A stretch of DNA of 64,000 bases. Source: Chloroflexota bacterium (GTDB taxonomy: Bacteria > Chloroflexota > Limnocylindria > Limnocylindrales > CSP1-4). Position numbers and translations under genes: made by a program. The notes under the pieces are model-generated. The model had not been told where the DNA came from, did no database searches, and was given only the letters and a program-made list of their open reading frames with translations. The stretch lies in assembly GCA_021789435.1 (NCBI GenBank), contig JAJYJO010000005.1, positions 2,521-66,520 on the forward strand, written 5' to 3'. This document shows positions 5,363 to 47,428 of this stretch, in pieces. How positions within the stretch are numbered: position 1 is the stretch's first letter; each line of letters starts with the position of its first letter.

Positions 5363-5394
5363 AGAGGCCGCATCCGCTCCCGCCGCGGTCACCT

Positions 5395-5426
5395 GCGCAT
5401 CCCGGGCGAACCGGCCCGGGATGCGC
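5395..5426 (+). terminator. Perfect 13-bp stem hairpin 33 nt after the helicase stop (no U-tract)
   Basis: GCGCATCCCGGGC-gaaccg-GCCCGGGATGCGC read directly. Confidence 0.5.
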
Positions 5427-5498
5427 ACCGCGAAACCCCTCGCGGGCGCTTCCGGCCCGGCGGGGCTATAGTCGGAGACAAGGCGCCCCGCGGAACCC

Positions 5499-6404: not shown

Positions 6405-6405
6405 A

Positions 6406-8730
6406 ATGGCCATCGCAGGATCCCCGCCGCACAAGCGTCCCCGGCTGGTCGCCCCGGAGCTCTGGGCCGGCTGGCGGCCGAACGGGATCGGCGAGCAGAA
6501 GCCGAACCACTACCAGGAGATCGCCCAGACGGTCTGGGACAACCGGCGCGCCCTGCCCTACGCCTGGCGGATCCTGAGCCAGGGCGTCTGTGACGGCTGC
6601 GCCCTGGGGGTCAGCGGCTTCCACGACTGGACGATCGACGGCGTCCACCTCTGCACGACCCGCCTGAACCTGCTCCGCCTCAACACGATGCGGCCGCTCG
6701 ACCACGACCGTCTCGCCGACGTCGCCGGGCTCCGGGCGATGAGCGGCGCGGAGCTTCGGGACCTGGGCCGCCTCGCCCACCCGATGATCCGCCGCCGTGG
6801 TGACGGCGGCTTCCGAAGGGCCACCTGGGACGAGGCGCTCGACCTCGTCGCGGACCGGATCCGGGCGACCGACCCTGATCGGCTGGCCTTCTACCTGACC
6901 AGCCGGGGGATCACCAACGAGGTCTACTACGTCGCCCAGAAGGTCGCCCGCTTCCTGGGCACGAACAACGTCGACAATGCCGCCCGCGTCTGCCACGCGC
7001 CCTCCACCGCCGGGCTGAAGAAGGCCCTGGGCGTGGGGGCCACCACCATCTCCTACAGCGACGTCCTCCAGAGCGACCTGGTCGTGCTCTTCGGCGCCGA
7101 CGTCGCCAACGCCCAGCCGGTCTTCATGAAGTACCTCTACCTGGCGCGCAAGGGCGGCACCAAGGTCGCGGTGGTCAACCCGCTCCGCGAGCCGGGCCTG
7201 GACCGCTACTGGGTCCCCTCCAACGTCGAGAGCGCGATCTTCGGCACCAAGATGACCGACGCCTGGTTCCAGGTCCACACCGGCGGCGACGTCGCCTTCA
7301 TCAACGGCGTCCTCAAGGTCCTCCTCGATGAGGGCGGGACCGACAGCGCGTTCATCCACGACCAGACGGCCGGCTTCGACGCGCTGCGCGCCTCCCTCGG
7401 CGGCCAGCCGTTCGAGGCGCTGGAGCAGGCCAGCGGGACAACCCGAGCCGAGATGGCCCGCTTCGCCCGCCTCTACGCCGGCGCGCGCTCCGCGGTCCTC
7501 GTCTGGGCGATGGGCATCACCCAGCACGTCTGCGGCAGCGACAACGTCCGGGCGATGGTCAACCTGGCCCTGGCCCGCGGCAACGTGGGCCGCGTCGGGG
7601 CGGGGCTGATGCCGATGCGCGGCCATTCCGGCGTCCAGGGAGGCGCGGAGATGGGCGCCTACGCCACCGTCTTCCCCGGCGGCGTCCCGATCACGCCGGA
7701 GAGCGCGGCCACGCTCACCGAGGCGTACGGTTTTCCGGTCCGCGGCGAGCGCGGCCTCTCGGCCGCGGAGATGATCGAGGCGGCCGGCCGCGGCGAGCTG
7801 GACGTCCTCTACTCGAGCGGCGGCAACTTCCTCGACGTCCTGCCCGACCCGGCGGCAGTCCGGGCGGCTCTCGAGCGGGTCCCGCTCCGCATCCACCAGG
7901 ACATCGTCGTCTCCAGCCAGATGCTGCTCGACCCGGCCGAGGCGGTCGTCCTGCTGCCGGCCCGGACCCGCTACGAGCAGCCGGGCGGCGGGACGGAGAC
8001 GACGACCGAGCGCCGGGTCCTGTTCAGCCCCCGCATCCGCGGCCCCAAGGTGGGCGAGGCGCGCAGCGAGTGGGAGATCCTGGTAGACCTGGCCGGCCGC
8101 GTCCACCCGGACCGGCGGCACCAGGTCGACTTCCGGACGGGCCAGCAGGTCCGCGACGAGATCGCCCGGGTGATCCCCGCCTACCGTGGCATCGAGAAGC
8201 TGCGCCGGGCCGGCGACCAGTTCCAGTGGGGCGGCCCACGGCTGTGCGACGGCTGGGTCTTCACGACGGCGGACGGGAAGGCCCACTTCGATCCGGTCGA
8301 ACCGCCGGAGCTGGCGATCCCCGAGGGCCGCTACCTGCTCTCGACTCGGCGGGGCAAGCAGTTCAACTCGATGGTGATCAAGAAGAAGGATCCCCTGACC
8401 GGGGCGGGCCGCGACGCGCTCTTCATCTCGGCCGAGGACGCGGCGGCGCTGGGGCTCGCGGACGGCGAGCCGGTCACCGTGCGCTCCGAGTCGGGCGAGG
8501 TGGCGGCCCGGGTCAAGGTGGCACCGATCAAGCCGCGCAACGTCCAGATGTTCTTTCCGGAGGCCAACCCGCTCATCGCCCCCGGCCGGCGGGACCCCGT
8601 GGCGCTGGTGCCGGACTACAACGCCACCGTCCAGGTGCTCCCCCGCCGGAGGGTGGCTGCCGCGTCCGAAGGCTCGCCCGGCGAGAGCGCGCCCGGCGGC
8701 GCCGGGGCGGGACGGGCTGCCGCCCGCTGA
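6406..8730 (+). CDS. Molybdopterin oxidoreductase alpha subunit, YdeP/FdhF-like (Cys-type, not selenocysteine)
   Basis: N-terminus KPNHYQEIAQTVWDNRRALPYAWRILSQGVCDGCALGVSGFHDWTIDGVHLCTTRLNLLRLNT is typical of the YdeP-type family. Active-site region AARVCHAPSTAGL has TGC at 6991-6993. It is paired with fdhD. Confidence 0.8.
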   Translation: MAIAGSPPHKRPRLVAPELWAGWRPNGIGEQKPNHYQEIAQTVWDNRRALPYAWRILSQGVCDGCALGVSGFHDWTIDGVHLCTTRLNLLRLNTMRPLDHDRLADVAGLRAMSGAELRDLGRLAHPMIRRRGDGGFRRATWDEALDLVADRIRATDPDRLAFYLTSRGITNEVYYVAQKVARFLGTNNVDNAARVCHAPSTAGLKKALGVGATTISYSDVLQSDLVVLFGADVANAQPVFMKYLYLARKGGTKVAVVNPLREPGLDRYWVPSNVESAIFGTKMTDAWFQVHTGGDVAFINGVLKVLLDEGGTDSAFIHDQTAGFDALRASLGGQPFEALEQASGTTRAEMARFARLYAGARSAVLVWAMGITQHVCGSDNVRAMVNLALARGNVGRVGAGLMPMRGHSGVQGGAEMGAYATVFPGGVPITPESAATLTEAYGFPVRGERGLSAAEMIEAAGRGELDVLYSSGGNFLDVLPDPAAVRAALERVPLRIHQDIVVSSQMLLDPAEAVVLLPARTRYEQPGGGTETTTERRVLFSPRIRGPKVGEARSEWEILVDLAGRVHPDRRHQVDFRTGQQVRDEIARVIPAYRGIEKLRRAGDQFQWGGPRLCDGWVFTTADGKAHFDPVEPPELAIPEGRYLLSTRRGKQFNSMVIKKKDPLTGAGRDALFISAEDAAALGLADGEPVTVRSESGEVAARVKVAPIKPRNVQMFFPEANPLIAPGRRDPVALVPDYNATVQVLPRRRVAAASEGSPGESAPGGAGAGRAAAR

Positions 8731-9083: not shown

Positions 9084-9554
9084 ATGGATCCGGCTCCGCT
9101 TCCCGTCGACCAGGATCGTGACGCCCGCATCGAGGCCATCCTCGAGCGGGCGCGACGGCTATCGGCCAATGAACTGCGTCGCCTCGTCGCCACGAGTCGG
9201 GGCGACGGAGGGATCGGTTTCGAGGACCGCCGCCAGGTCGAACGACGGCGCCGCCGGCTCCGCGCGGTCATGATCGCCGTGAGCCGGTCGCGAGCCTCCG
9301 CCCGCGCGGCCGCGGTCCAGGCGGAGGCGGTGGCGGCGGTCCGTTCGGCCGCGGCGCAGGCCCGCGTGCCGGCCGCGTTCGGCCGGCTGGGCACGCTCTT
9401 CGACGCCGAGCTTGCCGTCGCCGACGCCGCGCTCGCCGTCCTGCTCGAGGACCGTCTCGGCGCGGAGGTCGTGGCGCTGCTGAACGAACCCTGGCTGCGG
9501 GCCATCGGCAGGCCGGCGCCGAGCGCCGCGCTCGTCCGGGAGGTGCCGCGATGA
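9084..9554 (+). CDS. Hypothetical Ala/Arg-rich helical protein, translationally coupled to the GGDEF gene
   Basis: Strong GC3 bias. Its stop overlaps the next ATG (ATGA at 9551-9554). I recognise no family. Confidence 0.55.
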   Translation: MDPAPLPVDQDRDARIEAILERARRLSANELRRLVATSRGDGGIGFEDRRQVERRRRRLRAVMIAVSRSRASARAAAVQAEAVAAVRSAAAQARVPAAFGRLGTLFDAELAVADAALAVLLEDRLGAEVVALLNEPWLRAIGRPAPSAALVREVPR

Positions 9555-10816
9555 GCCGCGCCCCTTTGATCGAGCGCCGCCCGACCGGCCCGGAACTGGC
9601 CGTCTACACCGCGGTCGAGATCGCCGCCGGCCTCGGCATTTTGGCCTGGGCCTGCCTGACCCTGCCCCTGGCCGCCACGATCGCCGCTCCGGACCTGCCC
9701 GTGCCCGCGGCGGACGCAGCCGGGGTCGGCCTGGCCTTCTGGGTCGGCATCGGCCTGCTCGGCTCCCTCCGGACCTCCACGCTCCAGGGACGGGCGGTCC
9801 TGACCTTCGACGTGCCGTTCATCGTGGCCGCCATGATCCTCGGCGGCCCCCTGGCGGCCGGCTGGGTCGCGGCCCTGGCCGGCCTGGAGCTGCGCGAGCT
9901 GCGCGGCGAGGTCCCCTGGTACGGCGCCCTGGCCAATCACGCGGTGGCCGGCCTGGCCGGCGTGATCGGCGGTCTCGTGGTGATCTCGCTCCGGGTGACG
10001 CTGGTGGCCCTCGCGGGCGACCAGCTGGCCGCGCTCGTCGCCGCCCTGGCCGGGGCCTTCGTCTTCGCAGCTCTCGACGTCGGCATGGTGACGGTCACGA
10101 TCTCGCTGCGCGAGCGGCTCTCGCCGACCGAGGCGTCCGACATCTTCGGCGGCGCGTTCCGCCGGACGGCCGGGGCCGAGGCGATCCTCGGCTGGGTCCT
10201 GGCCCTCGGCTACCGGGAGGTCGGCTGGTGGGCGCCGGTCGCCTGCATCGCGCTCGTCCTCCTGGCCTGGCAGGCCAACGACGATCGCGAGGAGACGAGC
10301 CACGATGCGATGACCGCGCTGCTCAACCGCCGGGGCTTCCAGCGACAGCTGGGCCAGGCGGTCTGGCGGGCCCGGAAGGGAGCCGCTCACAGCGCGCTGA
10401 TCGCCATCGACCTGGACGGCTTCCACGACGTCAACAACCGGCTCGGCCACGCGGTGGGCGACGAGGTGATCAAGGCGATCGGCGGCCGCCTGCGCGCCGC
10501 GATCCGGCTCACGGACCAGGCCGCACGCCTGGGCGGTGACGAGTTCGCCCTGCTGCTGCCGGGAGTCCCGGACCTCACGACGGCGGAGATGCTCGCCCGG
10601 CGGATCCACGCCCGACTGACCGAGCCGCTCGGGCTGGCCTCGGGCCAGCTCGCGGTCGGGGCGTCGCTCGGCCTGGTCCTGCTCGACGAATCGGTCGTCT
10701 CCGGCGCCCAGGCGCTCGACGTTGCCGATGGGCTCATGTACGAAGCGAAGCGAGCCGGCGGCGGTGTCGCCAGCCGGCGGGCGAACTTGCCCGCCCTGGC
10801 GGCCGCTCCCGCCTGA
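9551..10816 (+). CDS. Membrane-bound diguanylate cyclase (multi-TM N-terminal domain + GGDEF domain with I-site)
   Basis: [55 protein letters not shown] (RxxD five residues before GGDEF). About 6-7 hydrophobic segments lie N-terminal to it. Confidence 0.85.
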
Positions 10817-11904: not shown

Positions 11905-13032
11905 ATGGCGCCCGAGGTCAACCAGCGGCCCGGTCTCGACGACGAGACGATCCGCAGCGCTCCCAAGGTCCTCCTGCACGACCATCTCGACGGCGGCCTG
12001 CGGCCGGCCACCATCGTGGACCTCGCCCGCGAGCAGGGCTACCACGGCCTGCCGACCTCGGATCCGGAAGCGCTCCGCCAGTGGTTCACTCGCGGCGCCG
12101 ATCGCAAGAGCCTGGAGCTCTACCTGGAGGGGTTCGCCCACACCGTCGGCGTGATGCAGCGCCGGGACGCCCTGGAGCGGGTCGCCGCCGAATGCGCCGA
12201 GGACCTGGCCGCGGACGGGGTCGTCTATGCCGAGGTGCGTTACGCCCCGGAGCTCCACCTGGAGGGCGGGCTGACGCTCGACGAAACCGTGGCCGCGGTC
12301 CTGGAGGGCTTCCGGCAGGGCTCGGCGGAGCGGCCCATCACCGTCCGCACGCTGCTCACGGCGATGCGGACCGGGGCCCACTCGCTCGAGATCGCCGAGC
12401 TGGCCGTCCGCCACCGCGACGAAGGCGTGGTGGGCTTCGACATCGCCGGCGCGGAGGCCGGCTACCCGCCGACCCGCCACCTCGACGCCTTCCACTACAT
12501 CGCCCGGGAGAACTTCCACTTCACCATCCACGCCGGCGAGGCGTTCGGGCTGCCCTCGATCTGGGAGGCACTCCAGTGGTGCGGTGCCGAGCGGCTGGGC
12601 CACGGGGTCCGGATCGTGGACGACATCCATCCCCAGGCGAACGGGCGCATCTCCATCGGCCGTCTCGCCGCCTACGTCCGCGATCGGCGGATCCCGCTCG
12701 AGATGTGCCCCACCTCCAACGTCCACACCGGGGCGGTGGCCTCCATCGACCAACACCCGATCGACCTGCTGCGCCGGCTCCGCTTCCGGGTGACCGTCAA
12801 CACCGACAACCGCCTGATGAGCGGGGTCACGCTCTCGTCGGAGTTCGCCACGCTGGTCCGAGTCTTCGGCCTGGACGTCACTGAGATGGAGTGGCTGACC
12901 CTCAACGCGATGAAGAGCGCCTTCTGCTCGTTCGACCTGCGGCTGCGCCTGATCAACGAGCAGATCAAGCCGGGCTATGCGCACCTGCGGGCGCTCGCCT
13001 CGCAGGCGGACATGCCGAGCCTGGTGGACTGA
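11905..13032 (+). CDS. add: Adenosine deaminase
   Basis: ATG at 11905 after [55 protein letters not shown]. Confidence 0.9.
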
Positions 13033-13090
13033 GGTCCGGCCTGCGCCGGAAGCGTCCGGGACGGGGCCCGGGCCCCGGGCGCTCGGGGCT

Positions 13091-13118
13091 CCGCCAATGC
13101 GGCGAGCCGCATTGGCGG
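13091..13118. terminator. 12-bp perfect-stem hairpin between the convergent add and carbamoyltransferase genes
   Basis: CCGCCAATGCGG-cgag-CCGCATTGGCGG. It is preceded by the 14-nt palindrome GGGGCCCGGGCCCC (13063-13076). Confidence 0.45.
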
Positions 13119-13340
13119 GCGAGGTGGCCCCCCGACGCATGGGCCGCGGACCTCCCGAACCCAGCGCGGGCCGGACCGGCCTCGCGGCGGCTTGTCCGGC
13201 AGGACCTTGCGGGCCCCGGCGCGGAACTCCCCGGTAGCACTCCTCGAGGTTATGCGGCTCGTCGCATCGCCGGGCCGGCCCGGCCGGGCCGGCCAAGCCT
13301 GGCGGCCCGGCCGGGCGGCAGTGACGAACGGGCTGGATGG

Positions 13341-13370
13341 ACGGGCTGGATGGACGGCGGGCCAGCCCGT
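13341..13370 (-). terminator. 9-bp stem hairpin immediately after the stop of the 13372-14349 gene; overlaps a 13-nt tandem duplication
   Basis: ACGGGCTGG-12 nt-CCAGCCCGT. GGGCTGGATGGAC occurs twice in tandem (13330-13355). Confidence 0.4.
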
Positions 13371-13371
13371 T

Positions 13372-14349
13372 TCAACGCATCGTGAGCGCCATCACGGCCT
13401 TCTGGACGTGGAGCCGGTTCTCCGCCTCGTCGTAGACCACCGAATGCGGGCCGTCGATGACCGCGTCGGCCACCTCGATCCCCCGGTCGGCCGGCAGCGG
13501 GTGCATGTAGAGGGCCTCGTCGGCCGCCATGGCCATCCGCCGCTCGTCGGTGATCCAGTCGGTGTACTGGCCGGCGATCGCGGCCCCCTCGGCATCGTCC
13601 TTGGCCGTCATCAGGGCGCCCCAGCTCTTGGCGTAGACGACATCGGAGCCGCGCATGCCGGCCTCGAAGTCGTCGAGCAGCTCGAGCGAGCCGCCCGAGC
13701 GCCGGGCGTTCTCGGTCGCCTGATCGACGATCTCCGGCATCAGCCGGAACTCCGGCGGGTGGACCAGCCGGACATTCATCCCGAAGCGGGTCGCCAGGAG
13801 CGCCAGGTCCTGCGGGACGCTCAGCGGCTTCTGGTAGGAGGCTGCGTAGGCCCAGGAGACCGTGATCGTCCGGCCGCGCGGGTCGCCCAGCTTCTCGCGG
13901 ATCGTCAGCAGGTCCGCCAGCACCTGGAAGGGATGGCAGACCTCGCACTGCATGTTGAGGACCGGGACCCGGCTGGCCGCGGCCACGTCGCGGATGTAGC
14001 GGTTGCCGACGCCCCAGTCCACGTTGCGGATGGCAATGCCGTCGTTGTAGCGGCCCAGGATCTCACCGATCTCGTGGGCCGTGTCGCCATGGGCGATCTG
14101 CGTCGTCCGGCTCTCGATGAACTGGGCATGGCCGCCGAGCTGGGCCATGCCCGCCTCGAACGACGCCCGCGTCCGGGTCGACGAGAAGAAGAAGAGCATG
14201 GCCAGCACCTTGTCCCGCAGGAGCGGGTGCGGCTGGCCGAGGGCGCGCTCCAGCTTGAGCCGAGCCGCCACCTCCAGGACGGTCTCGATCTCTTCGTTCG
14301 ACCATCCCTGGAGGCTGACGAGGTCGCGGCCGCGAAGGTCCGTCTGCAT
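13372..14349 (-). CDS. Knotted-type carbamoyltransferase of the N-acetyl/N-succinyl-ornithine carbamoyltransferase (AOTCase/SOTCase)-YgeW clade
   Basis: STRTR, CHPFQVLADL, TVSWAYAASYQKPLSVPQ, SDVVYAKSWGAL, ALYMHPLPAD, DEAENRLHVQKAVMAL. From memory, these blocks are near-identical to Xanthomonas AOTCase and E. coli YgeW rather than classical ArgF (no DVWxSMG). Confidence 0.75.
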   Translation of the reverse strand: MQTDLRGRDLVSLQGWSNEEIETVLEVAARLKLERALGQPHPLLRDKVLAMLFFFSSTRTRASFEAGMAQLGGHAQFIESRTTQIAHGDTAHEIGEILGRYNDGIAIRNVDWGVGNRYIRDVAAASRVPVLNMQCEVCHPFQVLADLLTIREKLGDPRGRTITVSWAYAASYQKPLSVPQDLALLATRFGMNVRLVHPPEFRLMPEIVDQATENARRSGGSLELLDDFEAGMRGSDVVYAKSWGALMTAKDDAEGAAIAGQYTDWITDERRMAMAADEALYMHPLPADRGIEVADAVIDGPHSVVYDEAENRLHVQKAVMALTMR

Positions 14350-14359
14350 GGCGCGCCTC

Positions 14360-15313
14360 CTACTCCGCAGCGCCCAGGACCAGCGAGAGGAGAGCCATCC
14401 GCATCACGACGCCGTTGAAGGCCTCCACCCAGTAGCGCTGGTGGCGCGTCTCGTCCACGTCCTCCGGCAGCTCGTCCATGCGCGGCAGCGAGTGGAGGAT
14501 GATGGCGTCGCGCTTCGCCCGGTCGGCGAGCAGCGGCCGCGTGACTCGGTAGGCCTCGGGCGTGCGGCCGGTCTCGCTGCCGCGCTCCACCCGCGACTGG
14601 GTGTAGTCGGCCTGGACGACCGGCTCCATGTAGATCACGTCGGCGTCGGCGAGGCAGTCGGCGACCGACGGCACCTCGCGGTAGCTGACGCCCATCGCGT
14701 CGAGCTCGGCCTTGAACTCCGGGAGCAGCGACATCTCGGGCGGCGAGACGACGTCGGCGCTCAGGTCGAACTGCGACGCGGCGTAGAGGATCGAGTGCAT
14801 CGTCCGCATCCGCATATCGCCGACGCACAGGACGCGGAGACCATCCAGGGTCCCCTTCTCCAGCCAGATCGTGTAGAGGTCGGTCAGGACCTGGGTGGGG
14901 TGTTCGCCCCAGCCGTCGCCGCAGTTGATGACCGGCACCGAGGCCCACCTGGCCGCCTCGGCCGGCGCCCCCTGCTGGAAGTGCCGGATGGCGATCACGT
15001 CGGCGTAGTACTCCAGCATGTGGAAGGTGTCCTTGATCGACTCCTGGTAGAAGTCGCCGGCCCGCGTCATCTTTGCGTCGCTGAAACCCAGGACGTGGCC
15101 GCCCAGCCGGTGCATCGCCGCCTCCGTGGAGAGGCGCGTCCGGGTGCTCGGCTGGTAGAAGGCCGTCAGCAGCGTCTTGTTCTTGAGCAGGTCGGTGTTG
15201 CGGCGGTCGCGGGCGTACGGCTTGAGGTCTTCGGCGACCTGGAAGACACGCAGGAACTCGTCGCGGCTGAAATCCTTGAGCGACAGGATGTCGCGGCCCA
15301 GGAAGCTTCTCAT
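14360..15313 (-). CDS. Divergent aspartate-carbamoyltransferase-family paralog (carbamoyl-phosphate site kept, aspartate site altered)
   Basis: QPSTRTRLS, VINCGDGWGEHPTQVLTDL and NGVVMRMALLSLVLG are all PyrB-like. The usual SSxxKGE is MTRAGDFYQES, LYxTRVQKER is IYMEPVVQADY, and HPLPR is HSLPR. Its ATG overlaps the upstream stop (ATGA, 15310-15313). Confidence 0.7.
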   Translation of the reverse strand: MRSFLGRDILSLKDFSRDEFLRVFQVAEDLKPYARDRRNTDLLKNKTLLTAFYQPSTRTRLSTEAAMHRLGGHVLGFSDAKMTRAGDFYQESIKDTFHMLEYYADVIAIRHFQQGAPAEAARWASVPVINCGDGWGEHPTQVLTDLYTIWLEKGTLDGLRVLCVGDMRMRTMHSILYAASQFDLSADVVSPPEMSLLPEFKAELDAMGVSYREVPSVADCLADADVIYMEPVVQADYTQSRVERGSETGRTPEAYRVTRPLLADRAKRDAIILHSLPRMDELPEDVDETRHQRYWVEAFNGVVMRMALLSLVLGAAE

Positions 15314-16836
15314 GATCGTTCTCCCCTCGCTGACGGTATGGCGATCGACGGCCGGGCGGGCGACGACCGGTTGGGCGGTGGGCGACGGCGGACGCCCGTG
15401 AAGAGGACGGCCACCGTCTCGTCCGGGCGGAGGACGCCGCGCCGGGTGAGCTCGATCAGGCCGGCCAGGCCGGCCGACCCGGTCGGGTCGACGTCGATGC
15501 CGGTGGTGGCCCGGCCGGTCTCGTTGGCCTCCACGAGCGTCGGCTCGTCCACGACGATCGGGTAGCCGCCGCTCTCCAGCATCCCCCGGACGACGGCCAG
15601 CCAGTCGTAGGTCTCGTCGTCGAGAATGCCCCCGGCGACGCTCCGCGGCTCCTCCTCCCAGGGCCACATGAAGGCGGAGCGGTGCCGGGCGGCCCCGGCC
15701 AGGACCCGCCGGCCGGCGGCGGAGGCGGCCGCGACCCGCAGGCGCTCCGCGCGGGCCTCCTGGTCGGCCGGCGGCGCGGCCGGATCCTCGCCCAGCAGCC
15801 GCGCGGCCAGGCGATCATAGGCCCGGGCGAGGGGGAAGACCCCGCGCGCCTGGACGGCATGGAGCCGCGGCAGCGCGACCGGCTCTCCGAGCGACCTCGC
15901 GTCGTCGAAGGCCTGGACGCAGGCGGAGGCAAGCGCCCCGCCGCCGACCTGGACGAAGAGCCGATCCAGGGTGCGGCCGGCGGCCCGCAGCTCGCTCACC
16001 AGCTCCCAGCCGAGTGTCTCGCCCCCCTCGATCGCCAGCCCGTTCAGGTTGCCCTGGCAGGTGAAGGCGAGGGCGCCCCCGGCCAGGGCCGCCAGCAGCC
16101 GGTGGTAGGTCGGGTCGCCCCGCACGCCGGCCGGGCGCTCGCAGACTTCCAGCCGCGCCCCGAGCTCGCGCAGCCGGGCCACCACCGCCGGGTCCGCATC
16201 GGGGGGGATGAAGACGTCGAGCGGCCGCCCGGCGGCCCGGGCGACCACCGCCGCGGCCAGGGCGGCGTTGCCGCAGCTGGCGATCGCCAGCCGCCGGCCG
16301 GCCAGCCCGGGCTCGAGGCCTTCGGCCACGGTCAACTCCAGGAGCGTGCCCATCAGGTGGCGCGCCTTGTGCGAGCCGCTCACGTTGCCCGTCTCGTCCT
16401 TGACGAGGACCGTTCCCCGCTCCCCGAGCCCGATGGCCGCTGCCAGCGCTGCCTCCGGCGCGAAGGGCGTGGCCCGGAAGCCGTGCCCGTCCAGCGCCGC
16501 GATCGCGTCGTCCAGCCGGTTCACCAGGCCGACGTAGTCGGCGTCGGTCCAGCCGGCCGCCCGGGCGACGTGGTAGGCGTGGAAGAGCTCCCGGTAGCGA
16601 ACGAACGGGTTGGGTTCCTCGCCGGCCGGGGCGCCGGGGAAGTGGAGACGGGCGGGGTCCAGGCGGCGGCCGAGGACGTGGTCGACATCGTCTCGCGGAG
16701 TGGCCGCCGGGCAGGCGAGGGGAACCGGCTCCCCGGCCGGCGCCCTCCAGCCGCAGCCGGCGCAGGCGATCCGGGTCGGCAGGTCGGGCGCCGCGACCGC
16801 CGCCCCGCGGCGGTTGGGCCGGGTCCGGGACGTCAC
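15310..16836 (-). CDS. Fold-type II PLP enzyme, threonine synthase/TrpB-like, with N-terminal Cys-rich (Zn-ribbon-like) segment
   Basis: GTG at 16836 overlaps the upstream stop (GTGA, 16833-16836). CAGCGW...C at the N-terminus. [19 protein letters not shown] (PLP lysine), [23 protein letters not shown]. The 869-aa ORF upstream of 16836 is Arg/Gly-rich and non-protein-like. Confidence 0.65.
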
Positions 16837-18329
16837 GCCCCGGCCATCCCGGTCCGGGCGTTGAATTCCTCGATCAGGAGGTCCCAGGTCGGGAGGACCG
16901 CCCGGATCTCGGCCCAGAAGGCCGGCTGGCGGCGGGCCTGGAACTCCTCGATCGTCACACCCCGCTGCTCGACCCAGGTGAAGTACCCCAGGTTGAAGAT
17001 CCGCTCGCGATCGGCCCGCGTCAGCTCCAGCAGGTTGTCCGCCCCGGCTCCCAGCACCACCTCGCCGAAGGTCTCGCCGGCGGCCACCGCGTCGAAGCCG
17101 GCGGGGAAGTCGCGAGCCAGGATCCGAGGCCACTCCGTCGCGTACATCGCCGCCCCGTCGGTGGCGACCGTCATCACCACGTCGGCGGGCCCCAGGCCCT
17201 GGTGGCGGGCCAGCTTGATCGCCGCCAGGACGTTGCAGAGAGCGGAGATCCCGAGCGACGGCAGGGCCGCCAAGAGCTCGTCCGGGACCCCGCGGCGACC
17301 GGCCAGGTACTCGCGACCGGCGGGCTCGTCGAAGAGGATGCCCAGCCGGTCGGTCGCGCGGTCGGAGATGGCGACCACGAAGTCGGTCGCCATCACGTCG
17401 TGGATCAGCGGGATGTGCTTGTCGCCGATCCCCTGGATGTTGTGCTCGCCGAAGCCGTTGGCCAGCATGGTCGGGCACTCGAGGGCCTCCACGGCGGCCG
17501 TCTTTGCGCCGAGCCGCTCCTTGAGGTAGTCGCCGGCCGCGATCGTGCCGGCCGAACCGGTGGCCGAGACGAACGCCGCCAGGCGCAGCTCGGGCCGGTC
17601 CGCCCGGAGGGCCTCGAAGACCCGCTCCAGGGCGCGGCCGGTCACAAGGTAGTGGACCAGGTGGTTCCCGAACTCGGAGAACTGGTTGAGGATGACGTTG
17701 GCGGGATCCGTCTCCAGCTCGGCGCAGCGGTCGTAGATCTCGCGGACGTTGCTCTCCGTGCCTGGCGTCCGGACGATGTCCGCGGGATCGGCCACCCAGC
17801 GCTCCAGCCAGGCGAAGCGCTCGCGGCTCATCCCCTCCGGCAGGACGGCCACGCCCCGGCAGCCCATGATCCGCGAGATCGCCACGCCGCCCCGGCAGTA
17901 GTTGCCGGTGGACGGCCACACGGCGCGCTGGGTCGTGGGGTCGAACTGGCCGGTGATCAGGCGCGGCGCCAGGCAGGCGTAGGCGGCCAGGACCTTGTGG
18001 GCGGCGATCATCGGGAACCGGTCGCCCAGGGCCACGACGATGGGTGCCTCCACGCCGGTCAGCGCCGGCGGAAGGACGACGTGGTCCGGCACCTCGACCC
18101 GGCTCCGGCGGTCGCCGCCGTTGTGCCAGTGGACGCGGAAGAGGTTGCGGGCATCGGGGGCGTCGGGGTCCACCTCTGCCAGCGAGGCGGTCACGCTCGC
18201 CGAGATCGTGGCCGGGTGGGCGAGCTGGGCGAAGGTCGGCAGGCGGATCCCGTTCTCCCGGAAGCGCCCGACCGTCCGGTCGTAGACGGCCCGGTCAACC
18301 AGTTCGTGCTCGAGCCCGAATCGCCGCAT
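16833..18329 (-). CDS. Fold-type II PLP enzyme, cysteine synthase/CBS-fold with long N- and C-terminal extensions (unassigned subfamily)
   Basis: [13 protein letters not shown] (candidate PLP Lys), [38 protein letters not shown] (compare TSGNTG...MPxxMSxER of CysK), [24 protein letters not shown] (compare HxIQGIGAGFIP). Confidence 0.65.
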
Positions 18330-18495
18330 CGCGCTCCCCTCTCACCCCGAAGCGGGGCGGAACCTCCCGCCGGGACGCCGCGTCGCCGCGCCCGCCGGCG
18401 GGCCGTGGGCGCCCGGCCGCGATGACGGCGGCGGGCCTCCGGCCGACGACCGGGTCGTGATGCCGGTCCAGGTCGGGCCGAACAGCACGCGTCGG

Positions 18496-18507
18496 GCGAA
18501 CGTTCGC
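18496..18507. promoter_or_regulatory. Perfect 12-bp palindrome GCGAACGTTCGC in the divergent PLP-operon/guaD intergenic region (candidate operator)
   Basis: Read directly. A second palindrome, ACGACCGGGTCGT, lies at 18446-18458. Confidence 0.35.
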
Positions 18508-18548
18508 TCGCTAGATTCCGCGTCGGCGGCCGCCGCCGGAAGGGCCAC

Positions 18549-20108
18549 ATGGCCTCTCCGGCGGGACCCGCGAGCGGGGAGGAGCATCGGATGGAGCGGC
18601 CGGACGCCGAGCCCCGCCTCGCCTCGGAGGCCGCGCCGCGGCATCCGGGTACGCGGCGCCCGGCACCCCGCCCCGACCCGGCCGCGGCGCCGCTGCCCTC
18701 CGCCCCCCCGTTCCGCCTCCGCGCCCGCATCCTGACGCCGCTCCCGGGGGGCGCCACGCGCTTCCTGCCCGACGGCCTGCTCGAGGTCGACGCCGCGGGA
18801 CGGATCACCTCCGTCTCCCCCTGGCAGGCGCCGGACGGGACGGTCGAGCCGGGCCAGGCCGTCGGGCCCGACACGGCACCCATCCACGACCTGCGGCCGC
18901 TGCTCCTGCTGCCGGGGCTGGTCGACCTCCACACGCACGTCCCACAGCTCCCCAACGCCGGGATCGGGGCGGGGTTGGACCTCCTGACCTGGCTCGAGCG
19001 CTACACCCTGCCCCTCGAGCGCAGTTTCGACGTCCCCACCGCCGAGCGCCTGGCGCCGCTCGCCTTCCGGGCATACGCGGCGGCCGGAACGACCACGGTC
19101 GCGGCCTACGCCACGGCCGACCCCGCGGCCACCGAGGCGGTCTTCGCCGCGGCCGAGGCGCACGGCATCCGGGCAGCGATCGGCCTCGTCCTGATGGACC
19201 GGGGGGTCGGCTCGACCGAGATCGACCGCTGGCCCTCCGGCACAGAGCAGCTCGACGCGTCGGCCGCGCTCTGCGCCCGCTGGCACGGCCGCGACGGGGG
19301 CCGGCTCCGCTACGCGGTCACTCCCCGCTTCGCCGTCAGCTGCTCCGCTGACCTGCTGCGCGCCTCCGTCCGCCTGGCCGGCGAGACGGGAGCGCTCTGG
19401 CAGACGCATCTCTCCGAGGACCCGCGCGAGCTGGCCGAGGTCCGGCGGGCCTTCCCCGGCGCCGCCGACTACCTCGCGGTCTACGAGGCGGCGGGGGCGC
19501 TCGGGCCGCGAGCCCTCTTCGCCCACGCCATCCACCTGTCGGCGGGTGAGGTCGCCCGTCTCGCCGCGAGCGGCTCCGGCATCGCCCATTGCCCGGCCTC
19601 CAACCTCTTCCTGCCCAGCGGGGTCATGCCCCTGGCGAGCTACCTCGCGGCCGGCCTGAAGGTCGGCCTCGGCTCGGACGTGTCGGGCGGGCCCAGCCCT
19701 TCGCTCTTCGAGACGATGCGGGCCGGCTTCTACGCCGGCCACGCCCTCCAGTCGCTGGCGCCGGGCGGTCCGCCGCCGATCGTCGACCCGCTGGCCTGGC
19801 TGCGCCTGGCGACGCTCGACGGCGCCGGGGCGATCGGCCTGGCCGACCTGGTCGGCTCGCTGGAGGCCGGCAAGGAGGCCGACCTCGTCGCCGTCGATCC
19901 GCGCCCGACCGAGCCGGTGCCGGGGGCGAGCTGCCGCGACGATCCCGCCGAGCTCGTCAGCCGCCTGATCTTCCGGACCCACCCGGAGATGGTCCGGGCC
20001 GCCTGGGTCCGGGGCCGGCTGCTCCCCACCGGGCCGAGCTCCCGCGGGCCGGTCAGCCCGCTGCCGGCGATCCGGTCCGACCGCGACCCGGCGCGCAGCC
20101 GTCGGTAG
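18549..20108 (+). CDS. guaD: Guanine deaminase
   Basis: Collinear with E. coli GuaD as I recall it: LPGLVDLHTHVPQ, TWLERYTLPLER, GTTTV, VTPRFAVSCS, WQTHLSED, FAHAIHLS, IAHCPASNLFL, VGLGSDVSGG, LEAGKEADLV. The start could instead be the ATG at 18591. Confidence 0.8.
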   Translation: MASPAGPASGEEHRMERPDAEPRLASEAAPRHPGTRRPAPRPDPAAAPLPSAPPFRLRARILTPLPGGATRFLPDGLLEVDAAGRITSVSPWQAPDGTVEPGQAVGPDTAPIHDLRPLLLLPGLVDLHTHVPQLPNAGIGAGLDLLTWLERYTLPLERSFDVPTAERLAPLAFRAYAAAGTTTVAAYATADPAATEAVFAAAEAHGIRAAIGLVLMDRGVGSTEIDRWPSGTEQLDASAALCARWHGRDGGRLRYAVTPRFAVSCSADLLRASVRLAGETGALWQTHLSEDPRELAEVRRAFPGAADYLAVYEAAGALGPRALFAHAIHLSAGEVARLAASGSGIAHCPASNLFLPSGVMPLASYLAAGLKVGLGSDVSGGPSPSLFETMRAGFYAGHALQSLAPGGPPPIVDPLAWLRLATLDGAGAIGLADLVGSLEAGKEADLVAVDPRPTEPVPGASCRDDPAELVSRLIFRTHPEMVRAAWVRGRLLPTGPSSRGPVSPLPAIRSDRDPARSRR

Positions 20109-20357
20109 GATCGACAGGCGCGCACCGGAGCGTTGCCCCGGCTGATCCGCGACCCGGCGGCCGCGGGTTTCCGGTCACGGCGATGGGGCCGACGTCCGGC
20201 AGCGGCGCTCCGCCGTCCGCGGCCGGCGGAGCTCAGGGCGCGGCGCGGCGGGGAGGTCGGGCCGAACGGCACGGGTCCCGGGCGTCCGGGGCGGGCTAGA
20301 TTGACCCCACGTGCGGCGTCGCGTCCCCGTCGCCGGCAGGGAGGAGCGGACGCCCGG

Positions 20358-23015
20358 ATGCACCTGACGCTCAACGGCCGGCCCGTTTCGGTCGAGGTCG
20401 AGCCCGACGAGAGTCTCCTTGAGCTGCTGCGCGAGCGGCTCGGACTGCGCTCGATGAAGGACGGCTGCGCGCCCGAAGGCTCGTGCGGGGCCTGCACGGT
20501 GATCGTCGGTGGGCGGCCGGTGGTCGCCTGCTCACAGCCCGCTCTTCGTTTCGCGGGCAAGGACGTCCTGACGCTGGAAGGGCTGCCTGCGGACGCCCGG
20601 GCCCTGTGGGCGGACGCCTTCGTGGCCGCCGGCGCGGTCCAGTGCGGCTACTGCACTCCCGGCATCGTGATGAAGGCGGAGGCGCTCCTCCGACGGACGC
20701 CCGATCCGAGCCCCGGGGAGGTGGCGACCGCCCTGGCCGGCAACCTCTGCCGCTGCACCGGCTACGTCAAGGTGATCGAGGCGATCCGCCAGGTGACCGC
20801 GGTCCGGCGCGGCGTGGAGTCCGCCCCCGCCGTTCCGGCCGACGGCGGCGTCGGCGAGCGCGCTCCACGCTACGAGGGCCGCGAGCTGGTCCTCGGGGAG
20901 CGGCCGTTCGTCCGTGACCTGGCCGTCCCGGGCATGCTCCATGGCGCCGTCCGCCTCTCGGACCATCCCCGGGCGCTCGTCCGGCGGATCGACCCGACCC
21001 GGGCCGCGGCGCTGCCCGGGGTCGTCCGGATCGCGACCGCCGCCGACGTGCCGGGCCGGCGCGTCCAGGGCCTGATCGAGGCGGACTGGCCGCTCCTCGT
21101 CGCCGAGGGCGAGGAGACGCACTGCGTCGGCGACGTCCTGGCGATCGTGGCCGCGGAGACGCGCCGGGCGGCCCGCCGGGCCGCGGCCGCGATCGACGTG
21201 GACTACGACGTTCGCGAGCCGCTCACCGATCCCTTCGCCGCGATGGCGGACGGTGCGCCGCGCCTCCACGCCGGCGGCAACGTCCGCTCACTCTCCGTCG
21301 TCCGCCACGGCGACGTCGAGGCGGCCCTGGCCGGCGCCGCCAACGTCGTGAGCGAGACCTTCCGGACGCAGCCGATCGAGCACGCCTTCCTGGAGCCGGA
21401 GGCCTGCCTGGCCGTCCCGAACCGGGCCGGCGAACCGGGGACGGACGGCCGACCGGCTCCGACCCTCCGGGTCCACTCGCAGGGCCAGGGCGCCTGGGAG
21501 GACCGCCGCCAGATCGCCTCGTTCCTGGGCCTGCCCGAGTCCGCGGTCCGGGTCACCCAGGTGCCCACCGGCGGCGGCTTCGGCGGCAAGGAGGATCTGA
21601 GCGTCCAGGGCCAGGCCGCCCTGCTGGCCCTGCTCACCGGCCGGCCGGTCCACCTGGCCCTGAGCCGCGGCGAGAGCATCCGCCTCCACCCGAAGCGCCA
21701 CGCCATGACCATGGACTACACGGCCGGCTGCGACCCCGAAGGGCGGCTCGTGGCGGTCCGGGCCCGGATCGTCGGCGACACCGGCGCCTACCTGAGCGTC
21801 GGCGACAAGGTCCTAGAGCGGGCCGCCGGCCACGCCTGCGGCGCCTACCGCGTGCCGAACGTGGACGTGGAGGCCAGAGCGGTGGCCACCAACAACCCGC
21901 CGGCCGGGGCGATGCGCGGCTTCGGCGTCGTCCAGGTCACCTTCGCCATGGAGGGGCTGCTGGACCGCCTGGCCGAGCGGGTCGGCCTCGACGGCTGGGA
22001 GATACGCTGGCGCAACGCGGTGGAGGCGGGCGACCGCTTCGGCACGGGCCAGCTCCTGGGGCCCGGCGTGGGTGTCAAGCGGACCCTGCTGGCGGTCCGG
22101 GACGCCTACCGCGGCGCCCGCTTCGCCGGGATCGCCTGCGGGGCCAAGAACACCGGTGTCGGCAACGGGATGATCGAGCGGGGCAGGGCGATCCTGCGGC
22201 CGGAGGCCGACGGCACGATCACGCTCCTCCATTCCTGGACGGAGATGGGCCAGGGTGTCCACACGGTCCTCCGCCAGCTCGCCGCCGGGGCGCTGGGCTT
22301 CCCGGCCGAGCGGATCCGCGTCGCGGTGGACACCGAGCGCGAGCTCGACACCGGCGAGACGACGGCCTCGCGCGCGACCGCGCTCGGCGGCCAGGCGGTG
22401 CTCGACGCGGCCCGGCGGCTGAAGGCGGCCCTGGCCGACGCACCCCTGGAAGCCCTGGCCGGGCGCGAGTTCGACGGGGAGTTCGTGGTCGACTGGACGA
22501 CCGACAACGCGGCCGCCGAGCCGGTCACCCACTTCGCCTACGGCTGGTCGAGCCAGGTGGTGATCCTCGACGAGACCGGCCGGCTGGCCCGCGTGGTGGC
22601 CGCCCAAGACGTCGGACGGGCGATCAACCCGGCGGCGATGGAGGGCCAGGTGGAGGGCGGCGTCCACATGGGCCTCGGCTACGCCCTCAGCGAGGAGCTG
22701 CGGCTCGAGGGCGGTTGGCCGGTCACCCACAGCCTCAAGTCGCTGGGTATGATCCCGCCGGCGGGGATGCCGCCGCTCGAGGTGATCCTGGTCGAGGAGC
22801 CGCAGCCGGAGGGGCCGCTCGGCGCCAAGGGCGCCGGCGAGGCCGTCCTGGTCCCGACGCCGGCGGCGGTCGCGGGCGCGCTCCACGCCTTCGACGGGGC
22901 CTGGCGGACGCGGCTGCCGATGCGCGATTCGCCCGCCGCCCGGGCCGCCGCCCCCCGGGCAGCCGGGGCGGCCGCCGGGCGCAGGCAGGCGTCGGTCTCG
23001 GAAACGGTGCCGTGA
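20358..23015 (+). CDS. Fused [2Fe-2S]x2 + molybdopterin-binding subunit of the xanthine dehydrogenase/aldehyde oxidase family (XdhD-like architecture, no FAD domain)
   Basis: ATG at 20358 after GGGAGGAGCGG. CAPEGSCGACTV, CGYCTPGIVM and CRCTGYVKV, followed by the Mo domain (PRYEGRELVLGERPF, GGGFGGKED, many XDH-family blocks). Confidence 0.8.
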   Translation: MHLTLNGRPVSVEVEPDESLLELLRERLGLRSMKDGCAPEGSCGACTVIVGGRPVVACSQPALRFAGKDVLTLEGLPADARALWADAFVAAGAVQCGYCTPGIVMKAEALLRRTPDPSPGEVATALAGNLCRCTGYVKVIEAIRQVTAVRRGVESAPAVPADGGVGERAPRYEGRELVLGERPFVRDLAVPGMLHGAVRLSDHPRALVRRIDPTRAAALPGVVRIATAADVPGRRVQGLIEADWPLLVAEGEETHCVGDVLAIVAAETRRAARRAAAAIDVDYDVREPLTDPFAAMADGAPRLHAGGNVRSLSVVRHGDVEAALAGAANVVSETFRTQPIEHAFLEPEACLAVPNRAGEPGTDGRPAPTLRVHSQGQGAWEDRRQIASFLGLPESAVRVTQVPTGGGFGGKEDLSVQGQAALLALLTGRPVHLALSRGESIRLHPKRHAMTMDYTAGCDPEGRLVAVRARIVGDTGAYLSVGDKVLERAAGHACGAYRVPNVDVEARAVATNNPPAGAMRGFGVVQVTFAMEGLLDRLAERVGLDGWEIRWRNAVEAGDRFGTGQLLGPGVGVKRTLLAVRDAYRGARFAGIACGAKNTGVGNGMIERGRAILRPEADGTITLLHSWTEMGQGVHTVLRQLAAGALGFPAERIRVAVDTERELDTGETTASRATALGGQAVLDAARRLKAALADAPLEALAGREFDGEFVVDWTTDNAAAEPVTHFAYGWSSQVVILDETGRLARVVAAQDVGRAINPAAMEGQVEGGVHMGLGYALSEELRLEGGWPVTHSLKSLGMIPPAGMPPLEVILVEEPQPEGPLGAKGAGEAVLVPTPAAVAGALHAFDGAWRTRLPMRDSPAARAAAPRAAGAAAGRRQASVSETVP

Positions 23016-44603: not shown

Positions 44604-44686
44604 GCCTCCTGGAGCGCGTCGTCCTCCAACCGTCGGCCGGCGCACCGCCGCCCGACCCGCCTCCCGATCCTGCGCCCGGGTCCAGC

Positions 44687-45544: not shown

Positions 45545-45794
45545 CTCCCCGCTGGTTCGGACCGCCGGGCCGGCCGCCGCCGGTCGTTCCCCGCGGCGCC
45601 TTCGACGCTGGGTCGCCTCCGGCGAACGACCGACCGGCCGTCGCCTGGATGAGGTGTGAGAGCGTACACCGTGACCGGCGCGCGGCGCCGGGCGGGCCTT
45701 TCGGCGCCGACCTGGTTCGCCGCGCCGGCGCCGGGCCGCCGTCGGCGTGGCCGTCGAGCGCGCCGCCCGGGCCGTCGATCCCGGCCCGGCTCGC

Positions 45795-47072: not shown

Positions 47073-47089
47073 CGGGCCGAATGTGGGCG

Positions 47090-47400: not shown

Positions 47401-47428
47401 TTGACAGGCGGCATCCCGAGACTATTCT
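47401..47428 (+). promoter_or_regulatory. Sigma-70-like promoter candidate for the iol operon
   Basis: TTGACA (47401-47406), a 16-nt spacer, then TATTCT (47423-47428), in a locally AT-richer patch. Confidence 0.45.

Follow-up and report, generated by a model that had tools for sequence, protein, structure and literature searches.

Introduction

The reductive degradation of urate via 2,8-dioxopurine (yanthine) was reconstituted in 2025 for Escherichia coli and Clostridium sporogenes (10.1101/2025.04.24.650524; PMC12507026). Urate is converted to 2,8-dioxopurine by XdhD/DOPDH and the product is reduced by YgfK or UacX, the rings are opened by SsnA and HyuA to yield 2,3-diureidopropionate, the ureido groups are removed by YgeW with phosphate and by YgeY via hydrolysis, and finally YgeX converts 2,3-diaminopropionate to pyruvate and ammonia, while YqeA derives ATP from carbamoyl phosphate (10.1101/2025.04.24.650524; PMC12507026). 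Here we analyze a four-gene operon, further referred to as G1–G4, encoding two pyridoxal phosphate (PLP) enzymes and two transcarbamylases in a Chloroflexota bacterium of the order Limnocylindrales. The analyzed stretch of 64,000 nt (further, the window) comprises positions 2,521 to 66,520 of contig JAJYJO010000005.1, assembly GCA_021789435.1. We suggest, with a probability of about 0.6, that G1–G4 encode the lower half of a reductive urate pathway variant found in soil bacteria.

Li et al. (PMC12507026) observed that SsnA clusters with a putative F420 reductase in Chloroflexota and Actinomycetota. As neighbors were scored in that study solely by Pfam family (PF00185 and PF00291), G1–G4 are indistinguishable there from YgeW and YgeX, and in the literature searched we found no publication treating the G1–G4 variant. 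The initial annotation of this DNA had compared the locus with the ygeW–ygeX…ssnA–xdhD–guaD region of E. coli, correctly, and had noted that it knew of no characterized pathway with such a set of four genes. It did not connect the locus with the parent pathway, solved in 2025, or with pseudo-aspartate transcarbamylases (pseudo-ATCases), described in 2013 adjacent to ygeW homologs.

Pseudo-ATCases were described by Barba et al. (2013; PMC4016543), and one of their subgroups is the Rubrobacter ureidoglycine transcarbamylase, acting on allantoate and phosphate. Subgroup 2, known from a single Nocardioides genome (JS614), adjoins a ygeW homolog, xdhABC and hyuA, and no function has been assigned to it (PMC4016543). 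The Ser/Thr residue of the H(T/S)LP motif has been proposed to bind the ureido nitrogen in ureidoglycine transcarbamylase (Shi et al., 2015; PMC4581275). A similar logic of energy gain, phosphorolysis of a ureido group to carbamoyl phosphate, is seen in the arginine and agmatine deiminase pathways, where catabolic ornithine transcarbamylase (OTCase) or PTCase is coupled to carbamate kinase; in the G1–G4 system, however, two successive transcarbamylases would act on one purine-derived skeleton.

Results

Operon structure and conservation

All four genes are located on the minus strand. The first gene of the operon, G1 (16833–18329), encodes a 498-aa PLP enzyme of the CysK/CBS fold, followed by G2 (15310–16836), a 508-aa PLP enzyme with a fold similar to ThrC, TdcB and racemases and an N-terminal Cys-rich ribbon, G3 (14360–15313), a 317-aa predicted pseudo-ATCase, and the last gene, G4 (13372–14349), a 325-aa compact transcarbamylase assigned to the YgeW clade. 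The stop codon of G1 and the start codon of G2 form a GTGA overlap (16833–16836), an ATGA overlap joins G2 and G3 (15310–15313), and the TAG stop of G3 is separated from the ATG of G4 by a 10-nt spacer GAGGCGCGCC (14350–14359) with a GGAGG-like Shine-Dalgarno sequence. Translation is uninterrupted at 498, 508, 317 and 325 aa, and the GC content at third codon positions (GC3) of each open reading frame is 0.94–0.96, coding frames in the window being recognizable by GC3 above 0.9; the overall GC content is 68–77% in the window and about 71–77% around the operon. Thus the coordinates, overlaps and translations of the initial annotation hold, and all motifs quoted in it are present: AAHKV and GIGDKHIP in G1; SGSHKAR and the Cys-rich N-terminus CAGCG...C in G2; STRTR, HPTQ, IYMEPVVQADY, MTRAGDFYQES and HSLPR in G3; VVYAKSWGAL, WAYAASYQKPLSVPQ and DEAENRLHVQKA in G4. 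Its description of the products as two fold-type-II PLP enzymes and two atypical transcarbamylases agrees with Pfam (PALP in G1 and G2, OTCace_N and OTCace in G3 and G4), structural models and motif alignments.

The distribution of the operon was studied by a scan with G1 of one genome per GTDB species, which yielded at least 594 relatives; the best 80 loci (65–75% identity, numbered with the prefix L below) were analyzed, with neighbors called by tblastn using proteins of the window, of the E. coli ygeW–guaD region and of recurrent neighbor families. Forty loci with at least 7 kb on each side of G1 constitute the well-flanked subset. The 80 loci come from Chloroflexota, Actinomycetota, candidate division NC10, Eisenbacteria, Acidobacteriota, Planctomycetota, Dormibacterales and others. 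G2 adjoins G1 in 74 of them, and the order G1–G2–G3–G4 recurs in metagenome-assembled genomes (MAGs) of Chloroflexota, Actinomycetota, the NC10 division and others, the four-gene adjacency being conserved in dozens of genomes.

The partners of the block are those of the reductive urate pathway. In the well-flanked subset, G2 is found in 38 loci out of 40, G3 in 29, G4 in 26, and both transcarbamylases in 25. An XdhD-like (DOPDH/XdhD-type) Mo enzyme is present in 33 of these loci, SsnA in 31, and a yanthine-reductase candidate in 29, this being YgfK-type in 12 cases, F420-dependent LLM in nine, and PreA/UacX-type in eight. Carbamate kinase, usually encoded immediately downstream of G4, is found in 20 loci, and hydantoinase, in five (11 of all 80). 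YgeX is absent from the well-flanked loci and occurs in just one of the 80 (L074), while YgeY is observed in eight of the 80. In the recurrent arrangement, G1–G2(–G3–G4–carbamate kinase) lie on one strand, with an operon of XdhD-like enzyme, SsnA and reductase alongside. The identities of the neighbors are supported by NCBIfam models: the relatives' YgfK scores 869 against the cutoff of 835, carbamate kinase 400 against 266, D-hydantoinase 529 against 393, 8-oxoguanine deaminase 580 against 532, and SsnA 439 against 444, that is, marginally under the cutoff.

Hence these loci have in common with the E. coli/Clostridium pathway the FeS/molybdenum cofactor (MoCo) hydroxylase, the YgfK, PreA-UacX or F420 reductase, SsnA, an occasional D-hydantoinase, a YgeW-clade transcarbamylase and carbamate kinase, the same division into an upper and a lower operon, and the same purine-funnelling neighbors (guanine, adenosine and 8-oxoguanine deaminases, xanthine dehydrogenase (XDH)). 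They differ in that YgeY is replaced by G3 and YgeX by two unrelated PLP enzymes, G1 and G2, and in that they are found mostly in Chloroflexota and Actinomycetota of soil, not in anaerobes of the gut. The system of the window itself belongs to the family of reductive-urate clusters only at the level of its relatives.

Four Chloroflexota-type loci (L028:375-2680, L035:912-3314, L044:1346-4108, L060:7526-9931) have, directly before G1 and in the same orientation, a gene for a transketolase-like thiamine-diphosphate protein of 800 aa, which is also encoded close by in L046 and L056; transketolase models with cutoffs of 488–788 give it about 99 bits. In a Vicinamibacterales MAG (L070:10001-12702), a 65% identical G1 homolog is found with no G2, and the N-terminus of the next gene product is, by eye, homoserine-kinase-like. 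In L065, G1 is followed by hydantoinase rather than G2.

Transcarbamylases G3 and G4

An alignment of 42 G3 orthologs with E. coli PyrB demonstrates that the carbamoyl-phosphate residues are kept (STRTR, R105, HPTQ, R167/T168), while the aspartate-binding ones are not. In the 80s loop, G3 has KMTRAGDFYQES where PyrB has SxxxKGE, with the loss of S80/K84; the inserted EPVVQADYTQSRVER stands in place of the PyrB segment 229–234, TRVQKER, with the loss of R229/Q231; and HSLP replaces HPLP. All three features, KMTRAGDFYQES, EPVVQADYTQSRVER and HSLP, are conserved in the 42 orthologs.

The closest solved relatives of G3 are ATCases (Pyrococcus abyssi, human CAD). Scores of the ATCase models diverge, as G3 is above the TIGR00670 cutoff (255 vs. 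237) and fails NF002032 (219 vs. 263). Exhaustive search of representatives at 50% identity, followed by alignment, shows that the G3 clade is discrete, with full-length representatives 78–82% identical and the next relatives at 50% or less; the latter belong to a wider set of paralogs sharing TRAGDxYxE and lacking RxQ. PyrBs with canonical motifs (SSxxKGE, TR[VI]Q[KR]ER) are 35–42% identical, and G3 is not adjacent to pyrC or pyrI. So G3, lacking the aspartate motifs and forming a discrete clade, does not fall inside orthologous PyrB.

In motifs and context, G3 matches the pseudo-ATCases described by Barba et al. (2013), with STRT and HPTQ kept, the H[ST]LP motif in place of HPLP, RxQ lost, and a context unrelated to pyrimidines. 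The RxQ position is occupied by PVV in the inserted EPVVQADYT, matching none of the published subgroup signatures AIA, GX[SC] and VXP. The context fits subgroup 2, with G4 10 nt downstream and XDH at 23104–26864, the likeness to Nocardioides being one of described context only.

Pseudo-ATCases, including the ureidoglycine carbamoyltransferase Rxyl_2847, and G3 share the ATCase branch, intact STRT and HPTQ, H[ST]LP, the lack of RxQ, annotation as ATCase, and the purine-catabolic context. The chemistry would also be similar, namely phosphorolysis of the alpha-ureido group of a di-ureido acid, allantoate being 2,3-diureidopropionate one carbon shorter. The difference is that the G3 clade is tied to the reductive rather than the oxidative pathway and has no uricase or allantoinase partner. 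The role of ureidoglycine transcarbamylase of the oxidative pathway was considered for G3 and rejected, as uricase and allantoinase are absent from the window and the hydantoinase-like neighbors in related loci score as D-hydantoinase, not allantoinase.

Swaps among loci bear on the role of G3. Among the well-flanked loci, 25 have G3 and G4, four have YgeW-like and YgeY-like proteins instead, one (L076) has G4 and YgeY without G3, and three have G3 only. Since YgeY alternates with G3, the latter probably phosphorolyses the second ureido group, and, because ATCase chemistry concerns an alpha-N-carbamoyl group, we infer that this would be the 2-ureido group of a diaminopropionate-derived ureide.

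G4 has 37% identity with E. coli YgeW, compared with 30% for ArgI. It shares with YgeW several segments absent from ArgI, TQIAHG(D/E)T, GxGNxY(I/M)R(D/E)V, WAYxxSYxKPLSVPQ, VY(A/P)KSW and LPAD, and is sister to YgeW-like sequences of other loci in a neighbor-joining tree that contains no AOTCase or SOTCase references. All NCBIfam scores of G4 are below the cutoffs, the best being AOTCase (251 bits) and OTCase (249 bits), with 186 vs. 453 and 171 vs. 500 on the YgeW models. The protein lacks three insertions of YgeW (325 aa vs. 396 aa), and of its signature residues, STRT and HPFQ fit the YgeW patterns S[LT]RT and HP[TMF]Q, whereas HPLP is outside H[AVC]LP. Carbamate kinase directly follows G4 in at least 20 related loci and is absent from the window; arg genes are not found next to G4. 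We read G4 as a compact YgeW-clade enzyme that would have the role of YgeW (YTCase), the knotted catabolic transcarbamylase.

One more type of transcarbamylase, sharing 47–55% identity with G4 and taking a branch position intermediate between G4 and YgeW, is observed at L043:18710-19675, L065:7149-8114 and L030:1-906, adjoining a different XDH-like Mo enzyme.

PLP enzymes G1 and G2

Both PLP enzymes are distant from characterized families. G1 scores 41 bits on PALP, 69 vs. 351 on the CysK model TIGR01139 and 37 vs. 413 on the CysM model; G2 scores 126 bits on PALP and 87 vs. 303 on the best ThrC model, NF006050. Their best sequence matches in PDB have E-values of about 1e-15. AlphaFold (AF2) models are confident, with pLDDT of 86 (G1) and 85 (G2). 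The G1 model superposes on CysK, CBS and beta-cyanoalanine synthase (20–27% identity) and has N- and C-terminal extensions of roughly 75–100 aa, forming extra helices, while the top Foldseek matches of the G2 model are threonine synthases, TdcB and serine/aspartate racemases.

All aligned homologs of both proteins retain the PLP lysine, a phosphate loop rich in glycine and the S-x-G-N loop; in G1, K112, STGN and GSAGT are invariant among 36 homologs, and in G2, there is an invariant Cys within S-C-G-N, at the position that holds the second catalytic base in serine racemase. The carboxylate-binding S-x-G-N loop is typical of enzymes acting on free alpha-amino acids. Given the retention of these three elements, G1 and G2 look catalytically active on free alpha-amino acids.

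Among metagenome proteins, 8,000 homologs of G1 and 7,251 homologs of G2 were found at E-values up to 1e-5, and public names of the homologs are cysteine synthase, threonine synthase, or plain PLP-dependent enzyme. Judging by the model scores, G1 and G2 are new PLP families, to which these database names do not apply. Unusually long homologs were examined as potential fusion clues and discarded, P0002 being a probable artifact of internal duplication and P0147 having a low-complexity tail; in the 665-aa G1 homologs P0002 and P0003, about 170 residues of G1 occur twice, most likely through misassembly rather than fusion.

The slot of G1 and G2 in the operon corresponds to that of ygeX (and hyuA) in E. 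coli, YgeX itself being absent from 79 of the 80 loci. Nevertheless, neither protein is a YgeX ortholog. The diaminopropionate ammonia-lyase models NF006058 and TIGR03528 give no match to G1 or G2 at E ≤ 0.01, and hhalign assigns G2 a probability of 81% over 190 columns and G1 a probability of 1%, so that the resemblance of G2 to YgeX is at the superfamily level only. A substitute for hydantoinase was considered for G1/G2 as well and rejected, as hydantoinase co-occurs with them in 11 loci and both proteins keep the features of amino-acid enzymes. Compared to YgeX, G1 and G2 are also fold-type-II PLP enzymes in the same operon slot, and a step consuming diaminopropionate is needed once the ureido groups are gone, but there are two proteins rather than one, each about 100 aa longer, and non-orthologous to YgeX.

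The only YgeX in the set, that of L074, is a true diaminopropionate ammonia-lyase (333 vs. 276). A metagenome scan anchored at it returned 20 contigs from a single Dermatophilaceae-like lineage and so is not a broad census. The near-identical clusters of this lineage (L074, L075, L033, L084–L100) have three states: XdhD-like > ygeX > yqeB-like, XdhD-like > ygeX > G1 > G2 > yqeB-like, and XdhD-like > G1 > G2. Here G1–G2 behave as a mobile two-gene cassette. This pattern fits non-orthologous displacement and equally allows for an add-on.

We suggest, with moderate confidence only, that G1 and G2 dispose of a diaminopropionate-type product. The labor could be split between a racemase and an L-specific beta-lyase; other options are beta-replacement to serine with subsequent dehydration, or beta-elimination from 3-ureidoalanine.

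A model of the pathway

The gene identities, their conservation and co-localization, and the swaps described above are consistent with the following scheme, in which what G3 and G4 act on, which cleavage comes first and, above all, what G1 and G2 catalyze are inferred. Urate would be supplied by conventional XDH and deaminases, and its 6-oxo group would be removed by the Mo enzyme of the TIGR03311 type. The reductase and SsnA, adjacent in the relatives and absent from the window, would open the ring system, with hydantoinase producing 2,3-diureidopropionate. Then G4, the counterpart of YgeW, would phosphorolyse one ureido group to carbamoyl phosphate, the 3-ureido group if it acts like YgeW in the Dodd assignment, and G3, having kept the carbamoyl-phosphate site and lost the site for the aspartate beta-carboxylate, would phosphorolyse the remaining alpha-N-ureido group, replacing hydrolysis by YgeY. 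Two carbamoyl phosphates rather than one would be formed per urate, both convertible by carbamate kinase. Finally, in place of YgeX, G1 and G2 would convert the 2,3-diaminopropionate-type amino acid, with pyruvate and ammonia as the probable products.

In its strongest form, the scheme is a fully phosphorolytic soil route of urate degradation, with a YgeW-type enzyme and a pseudo-ATCase acting as N-carbamoyl-diaminopropionate phosphorylase, two ATP per urate, and a new two-enzyme PLP system, possibly a Cys-dependent racemase (G2) with an L-specific beta-lyase (G1), or direct beta-elimination of ureido-alanine. We put this form forward tentatively, regarding it as possible but somewhat doubtful.

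Genomic neighborhood in the window

The operon is embedded in a purine island extending from about 11.9 to 26.9 kb and flanked, as had been annotated, by add on one side and a guaD-like gene with two XDH-family enzymes on the other, all of them recovered by domain and model scores. The adenosine deaminase gene (11905–13032, plus strand; A_deaminase, 355 bits) is convergent with the operon and has a same-side ortholog with 80–81% identity in L003, L012, L026 and L062. On the other side, divergently from G1, lies a gene for a GuaD-like amidohydrolase (18591–20108, plus strand; Amidohydro_1; TIGR02967, 324 vs. the cutoff of 375), 35% identical to E. coli GuaD and probably a guanine-type deaminase feeding the pathway. 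It was also considered as SsnA, which is ruled out by the score of 42 vs. 455 on the SsnA model. In related clusters, the amidohydrolase L021:8635-9771, 28% identical to E. coli GuaD, scores as an 8-oxoguanine deaminase (NF006055, 580 vs. 532), a direct urate producer, and similar GuaD-like neighbors are observed in the L038, L036, L042, L060, L068, L069 and L076 clusters.

The next gene encodes a 960-aa fused 2Fe-2S/MoCo hydroxylase (20133–23015, plus strand; TIGR03311, 921 vs. the cutoff of 830) with domains Fer2, Fer2_2, Ald_Xan_dh_C and MoCoBD_1/2. Its identity to E. coli XdhD is only about 26%, and an ortholog with 54–76% identity adjoins G1 in 53 of the 80 loci. We propose this protein as a candidate urate/2,8-dioxopurine dehydrogenase, which would catalyze the initial reaction of the pathway. 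Next to it lies a conventional two-gene XDH (23104–26864, minus strand), identified by Pfam domains, with the FeS/FAD subunit at 23104–24528 and the Mo subunit at 24525–26864; the XDH is 30% identical to E. coli XdhA and syntenic in L003, L006, L026 and L062.

A tblastn search of the 64-kb window with E. coli proteins and the cluster proteins of the relatives revealed no SsnA, no reductase of the YgfK, PreA or LLM type, no hydantoinase, YgeX, YgeY or carbamate kinase, and no uricase- or allantoinase-type genes were found in the window, which bears out the initial annotation as regards carbamate kinase, uricase and allantoinase. An F420-dependent LLM encoded in the window (43584–44645, TIGR03842 family) was considered as the yanthine reductase and ruled out, being dissimilar to the cluster-associated LLM of the relatives. 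It belongs to a run of three genes (43584–47414, minus strand), about 25 kb from the operon, encoding the LLM (TIGR03842, 433 vs. 295), a carbon-nitrogen hydrolase, similar to N-carbamoylputrescine amidase and below the cutoff, and a cysteine-desulfurase-like protein (TIGR01976, 450 vs. 352).

Downstream of the last gene of the operon, a hairpin is formed at 13327–13371 (minus strand) by a perfect 10-bp stem (13327–13336/13362–13371) with a 25-nt loop. The inverted repeat begins one base past the G4 stop, in accordance with the initial annotation, and has no U-tract; however, the 81-nt hairpin region is not more stable than shuffled sequences (z = −0.28), and a terminator scan gave no match. 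Thus the hairpin is a true feature of the sequence, statistically unremarkable in GC-rich DNA. Overall, the convergent spacer between add and G4 (13033–13371) contains three perfect inverted repeats, at 13091–13118 (13-nt arms), 13278–13316 (14-nt arms) and 13327–13371 (10-nt arms), and a tandem duplication of CCATCCAGCCCGT in the spacer yields two alternative 3' arms for the last of them. The divergent region between G1 and the amidohydrolase gene (18330–18590), the presumed promoter/operator, contains palindromes, all of them GC-rich; a scan of this region with the sigma-70 promoter consensus gave no match, and a search of the whole window against Rfam found nothing, hence no riboswitch or known RNA upstream.

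Beyond the island are lysine-biosynthesis genes, an operon of dapA, dapD and a lysA-like gene (26971–30265, minus strand) directly abutting the XDH genes; the lysA-like decarboxylase scores 283 vs. 298 on lysA, and its top model is the exosortase-associated decarboxylase (300 vs. 478), both below the cutoffs. Regions 4247–8730 and 9551–10816, encoding a GGDEF diguanylate cyclase, a DEAD-box helicase, FdhD and a molybdopterin oxidoreductase, appear unrelated to the operon.

Alternative explanations

Several observations weigh against assigning G1–G4 to the reductive urate pathway. The pathway is incomplete in the 64 kb, where ssnA, a yanthine reductase of the type seen in relatives, hydantoinase and carbamate kinase are missing. 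Hydantoinase is found in only 11 of the 80 loci, leaving one ring-opening step unaccounted for in most clusters, and in the G1(–G2) loci L016 and L070 a 10-kb vicinity is free of purine genes. A genuine YgeX accompanies G1–G2 in L074 and its relatives, so that G1–G2 may add a function rather than replace one, and the requirement for two apparently active PLP enzymes is unexplained. G3 passes the ATCase cutoff of TIGR00670, and what is known of G1–G4 comes from sequences and, for G1 and G2, predicted structures. Finally, the two 2025 papers differ on the ureido group removed by YgeW (10.1101/2025.04.24.650524 vs. PMC12507026), making the order of G3 and G4 uncertain.

In one alternative, G3 and G4 act as proposed, G1–G2 are an accessory module, and diaminopropionate is consumed by an enzyme encoded elsewhere. 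The job of the module could be, for example, processing of a side product, racemisation, beta-elimination of urea from 3-ureidoalanine, or supply of sulfur or selenium to the Mo hydroxylase. Such a module agrees with the coexistence of YgeX and G1–G2 in L074, L084–L087, L095, L099 and L100, where G1–G2 are an optional insertion between ygeX and the yqeB-like gene in otherwise near-identical contigs; with G1 being usually divergently adjacent to the Mo enzyme; with the transketolase-like gene before G1 in L028, L035, L044 and L060; and with a few G1 loci without purine genes. On the contrary, YgeX is missing from 79 out of the 80 G1-anchored loci, with all other steps of the pathway represented, G1 and G2 belong to one operon with the transcarbamylases and carbamate kinase, like ygeX in E. 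coli, and both keep the carboxylate loop S-x-G-N, generally associated with enzymes of free alpha-amino acids. The sulfur- or selenium-mobilizing PLP enzymes known to us are of fold type I, not fold type II, which counts against the supply of these elements in particular. On balance, we consider an accessory role of G1–G2 unlikely.

In another alternative, the block is a leftover in this genome, the upper pathway and carbamate kinase being lost and the four genes idle or re-used for another ureide. In its favor, ssnA, a reductase of the ygfK, preA or LLM type, hydantoinase and carbamate kinase are missing from the 64 kb, and the closest syntenic loci, L003 and L026, hold the reductase and ssnA between the XdhD-like gene and XDH, where the window has just 89 bp. 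But G1–G4 are intact, with GC3 of 0.94–0.96 and residues invariant in homologs retained; loci L035 and L060 likewise keep parts of the cluster apart; and the 64 kb visible are part of a metagenome contig, so that other parts of the genome may encode the missing genes. A decayed pathway thus seems quite improbable.

Of the two readings offered by the initial annotation, phosphorolysis of purine ureides is supported by the co-localization, across phyla, with SsnA, the YgfK, PreA and F420 reductases, the DOPDH-type Mo enzyme and carbamate kinase, and by the positions of G4 in the YgeW clade and of G3 outside true PyrB. The other reading, biosynthesis of a non-proteinogenic ureido amino acid by PLP-dependent beta-replacement and subsequent N-carbamoylation, has precedents in the viomycin and zwittermicin clusters, where CysK-like enzymes and transcarbamylases make 2,3-diaminopropionate and beta-ureidoalanine (PMC4581275), and carbamoylation is the direction favored by the equilibria of transcarbamylases. 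Still, neither the window nor the 80 loci have genes for NRPS, ligase, export or resistance beside the block; its constant partners are catabolic (Mo hydroxylases, SsnA, deaminases, ABC transporters of the purine type, carbamate kinase), and G3 and G4 match SbnA-family and other biosynthetic models weakly, making biosynthesis very improbable.

Least credible of all is the ordinary annotation of G3 as housekeeping ATCase, G4 as (acetyl)ornithine transcarbamylase, G1 as cysteine synthase and G2 as threonine synthase, which follows the TIGR00670 score and the public names of the G1 and G2 homologs but disagrees with the lack of R229/Q231 and of the S80/K84 loop in G3, its failure on NF002032 and the absence of a pyrC/pyrI neighbor, with the scores of G4 under every OTCase and AOTCase cutoff and its YgeW motifs, with the low scores of G1 on CysK (69 vs. 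351) and G2 on ThrC (87 vs. 303), and with the purine-catabolism context in dozens of genomes.

Discussion

The reductive urate pathway was solved in 2025 for gut anaerobes only, and the G1–G4 block indicates a widespread environmental variant of it, in which the irreversible hydrolase step would be swapped for a second energy-conserving phosphorolysis, and the terminal lyase, for two PLP enzymes without characterized relatives. As such, the block is a variant of a known pathway with three uncharacterized enzyme families, G1, G2 and G3. It also flags systematic misannotation, as G3 passes the ATCase equivalog cutoff, and G1 and G2 are labeled cysteine and threonine synthases.

The variant makes it possible to ask, in a testable way, about the stereochemistry of diaminopropionate derived from purines and about its fate, and may provide alternative enzymes for the engineering of urate-degrading strains. 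For the pseudo-ATCase clade, unexplained since 2013, it offers a concrete candidate function. The fully phosphorolytic route, if true, would establish three enzyme activities as new, and database entries now labeled "cysteine synthase," "threonine synthase" or "ATCase" would be corrected in their thousands.

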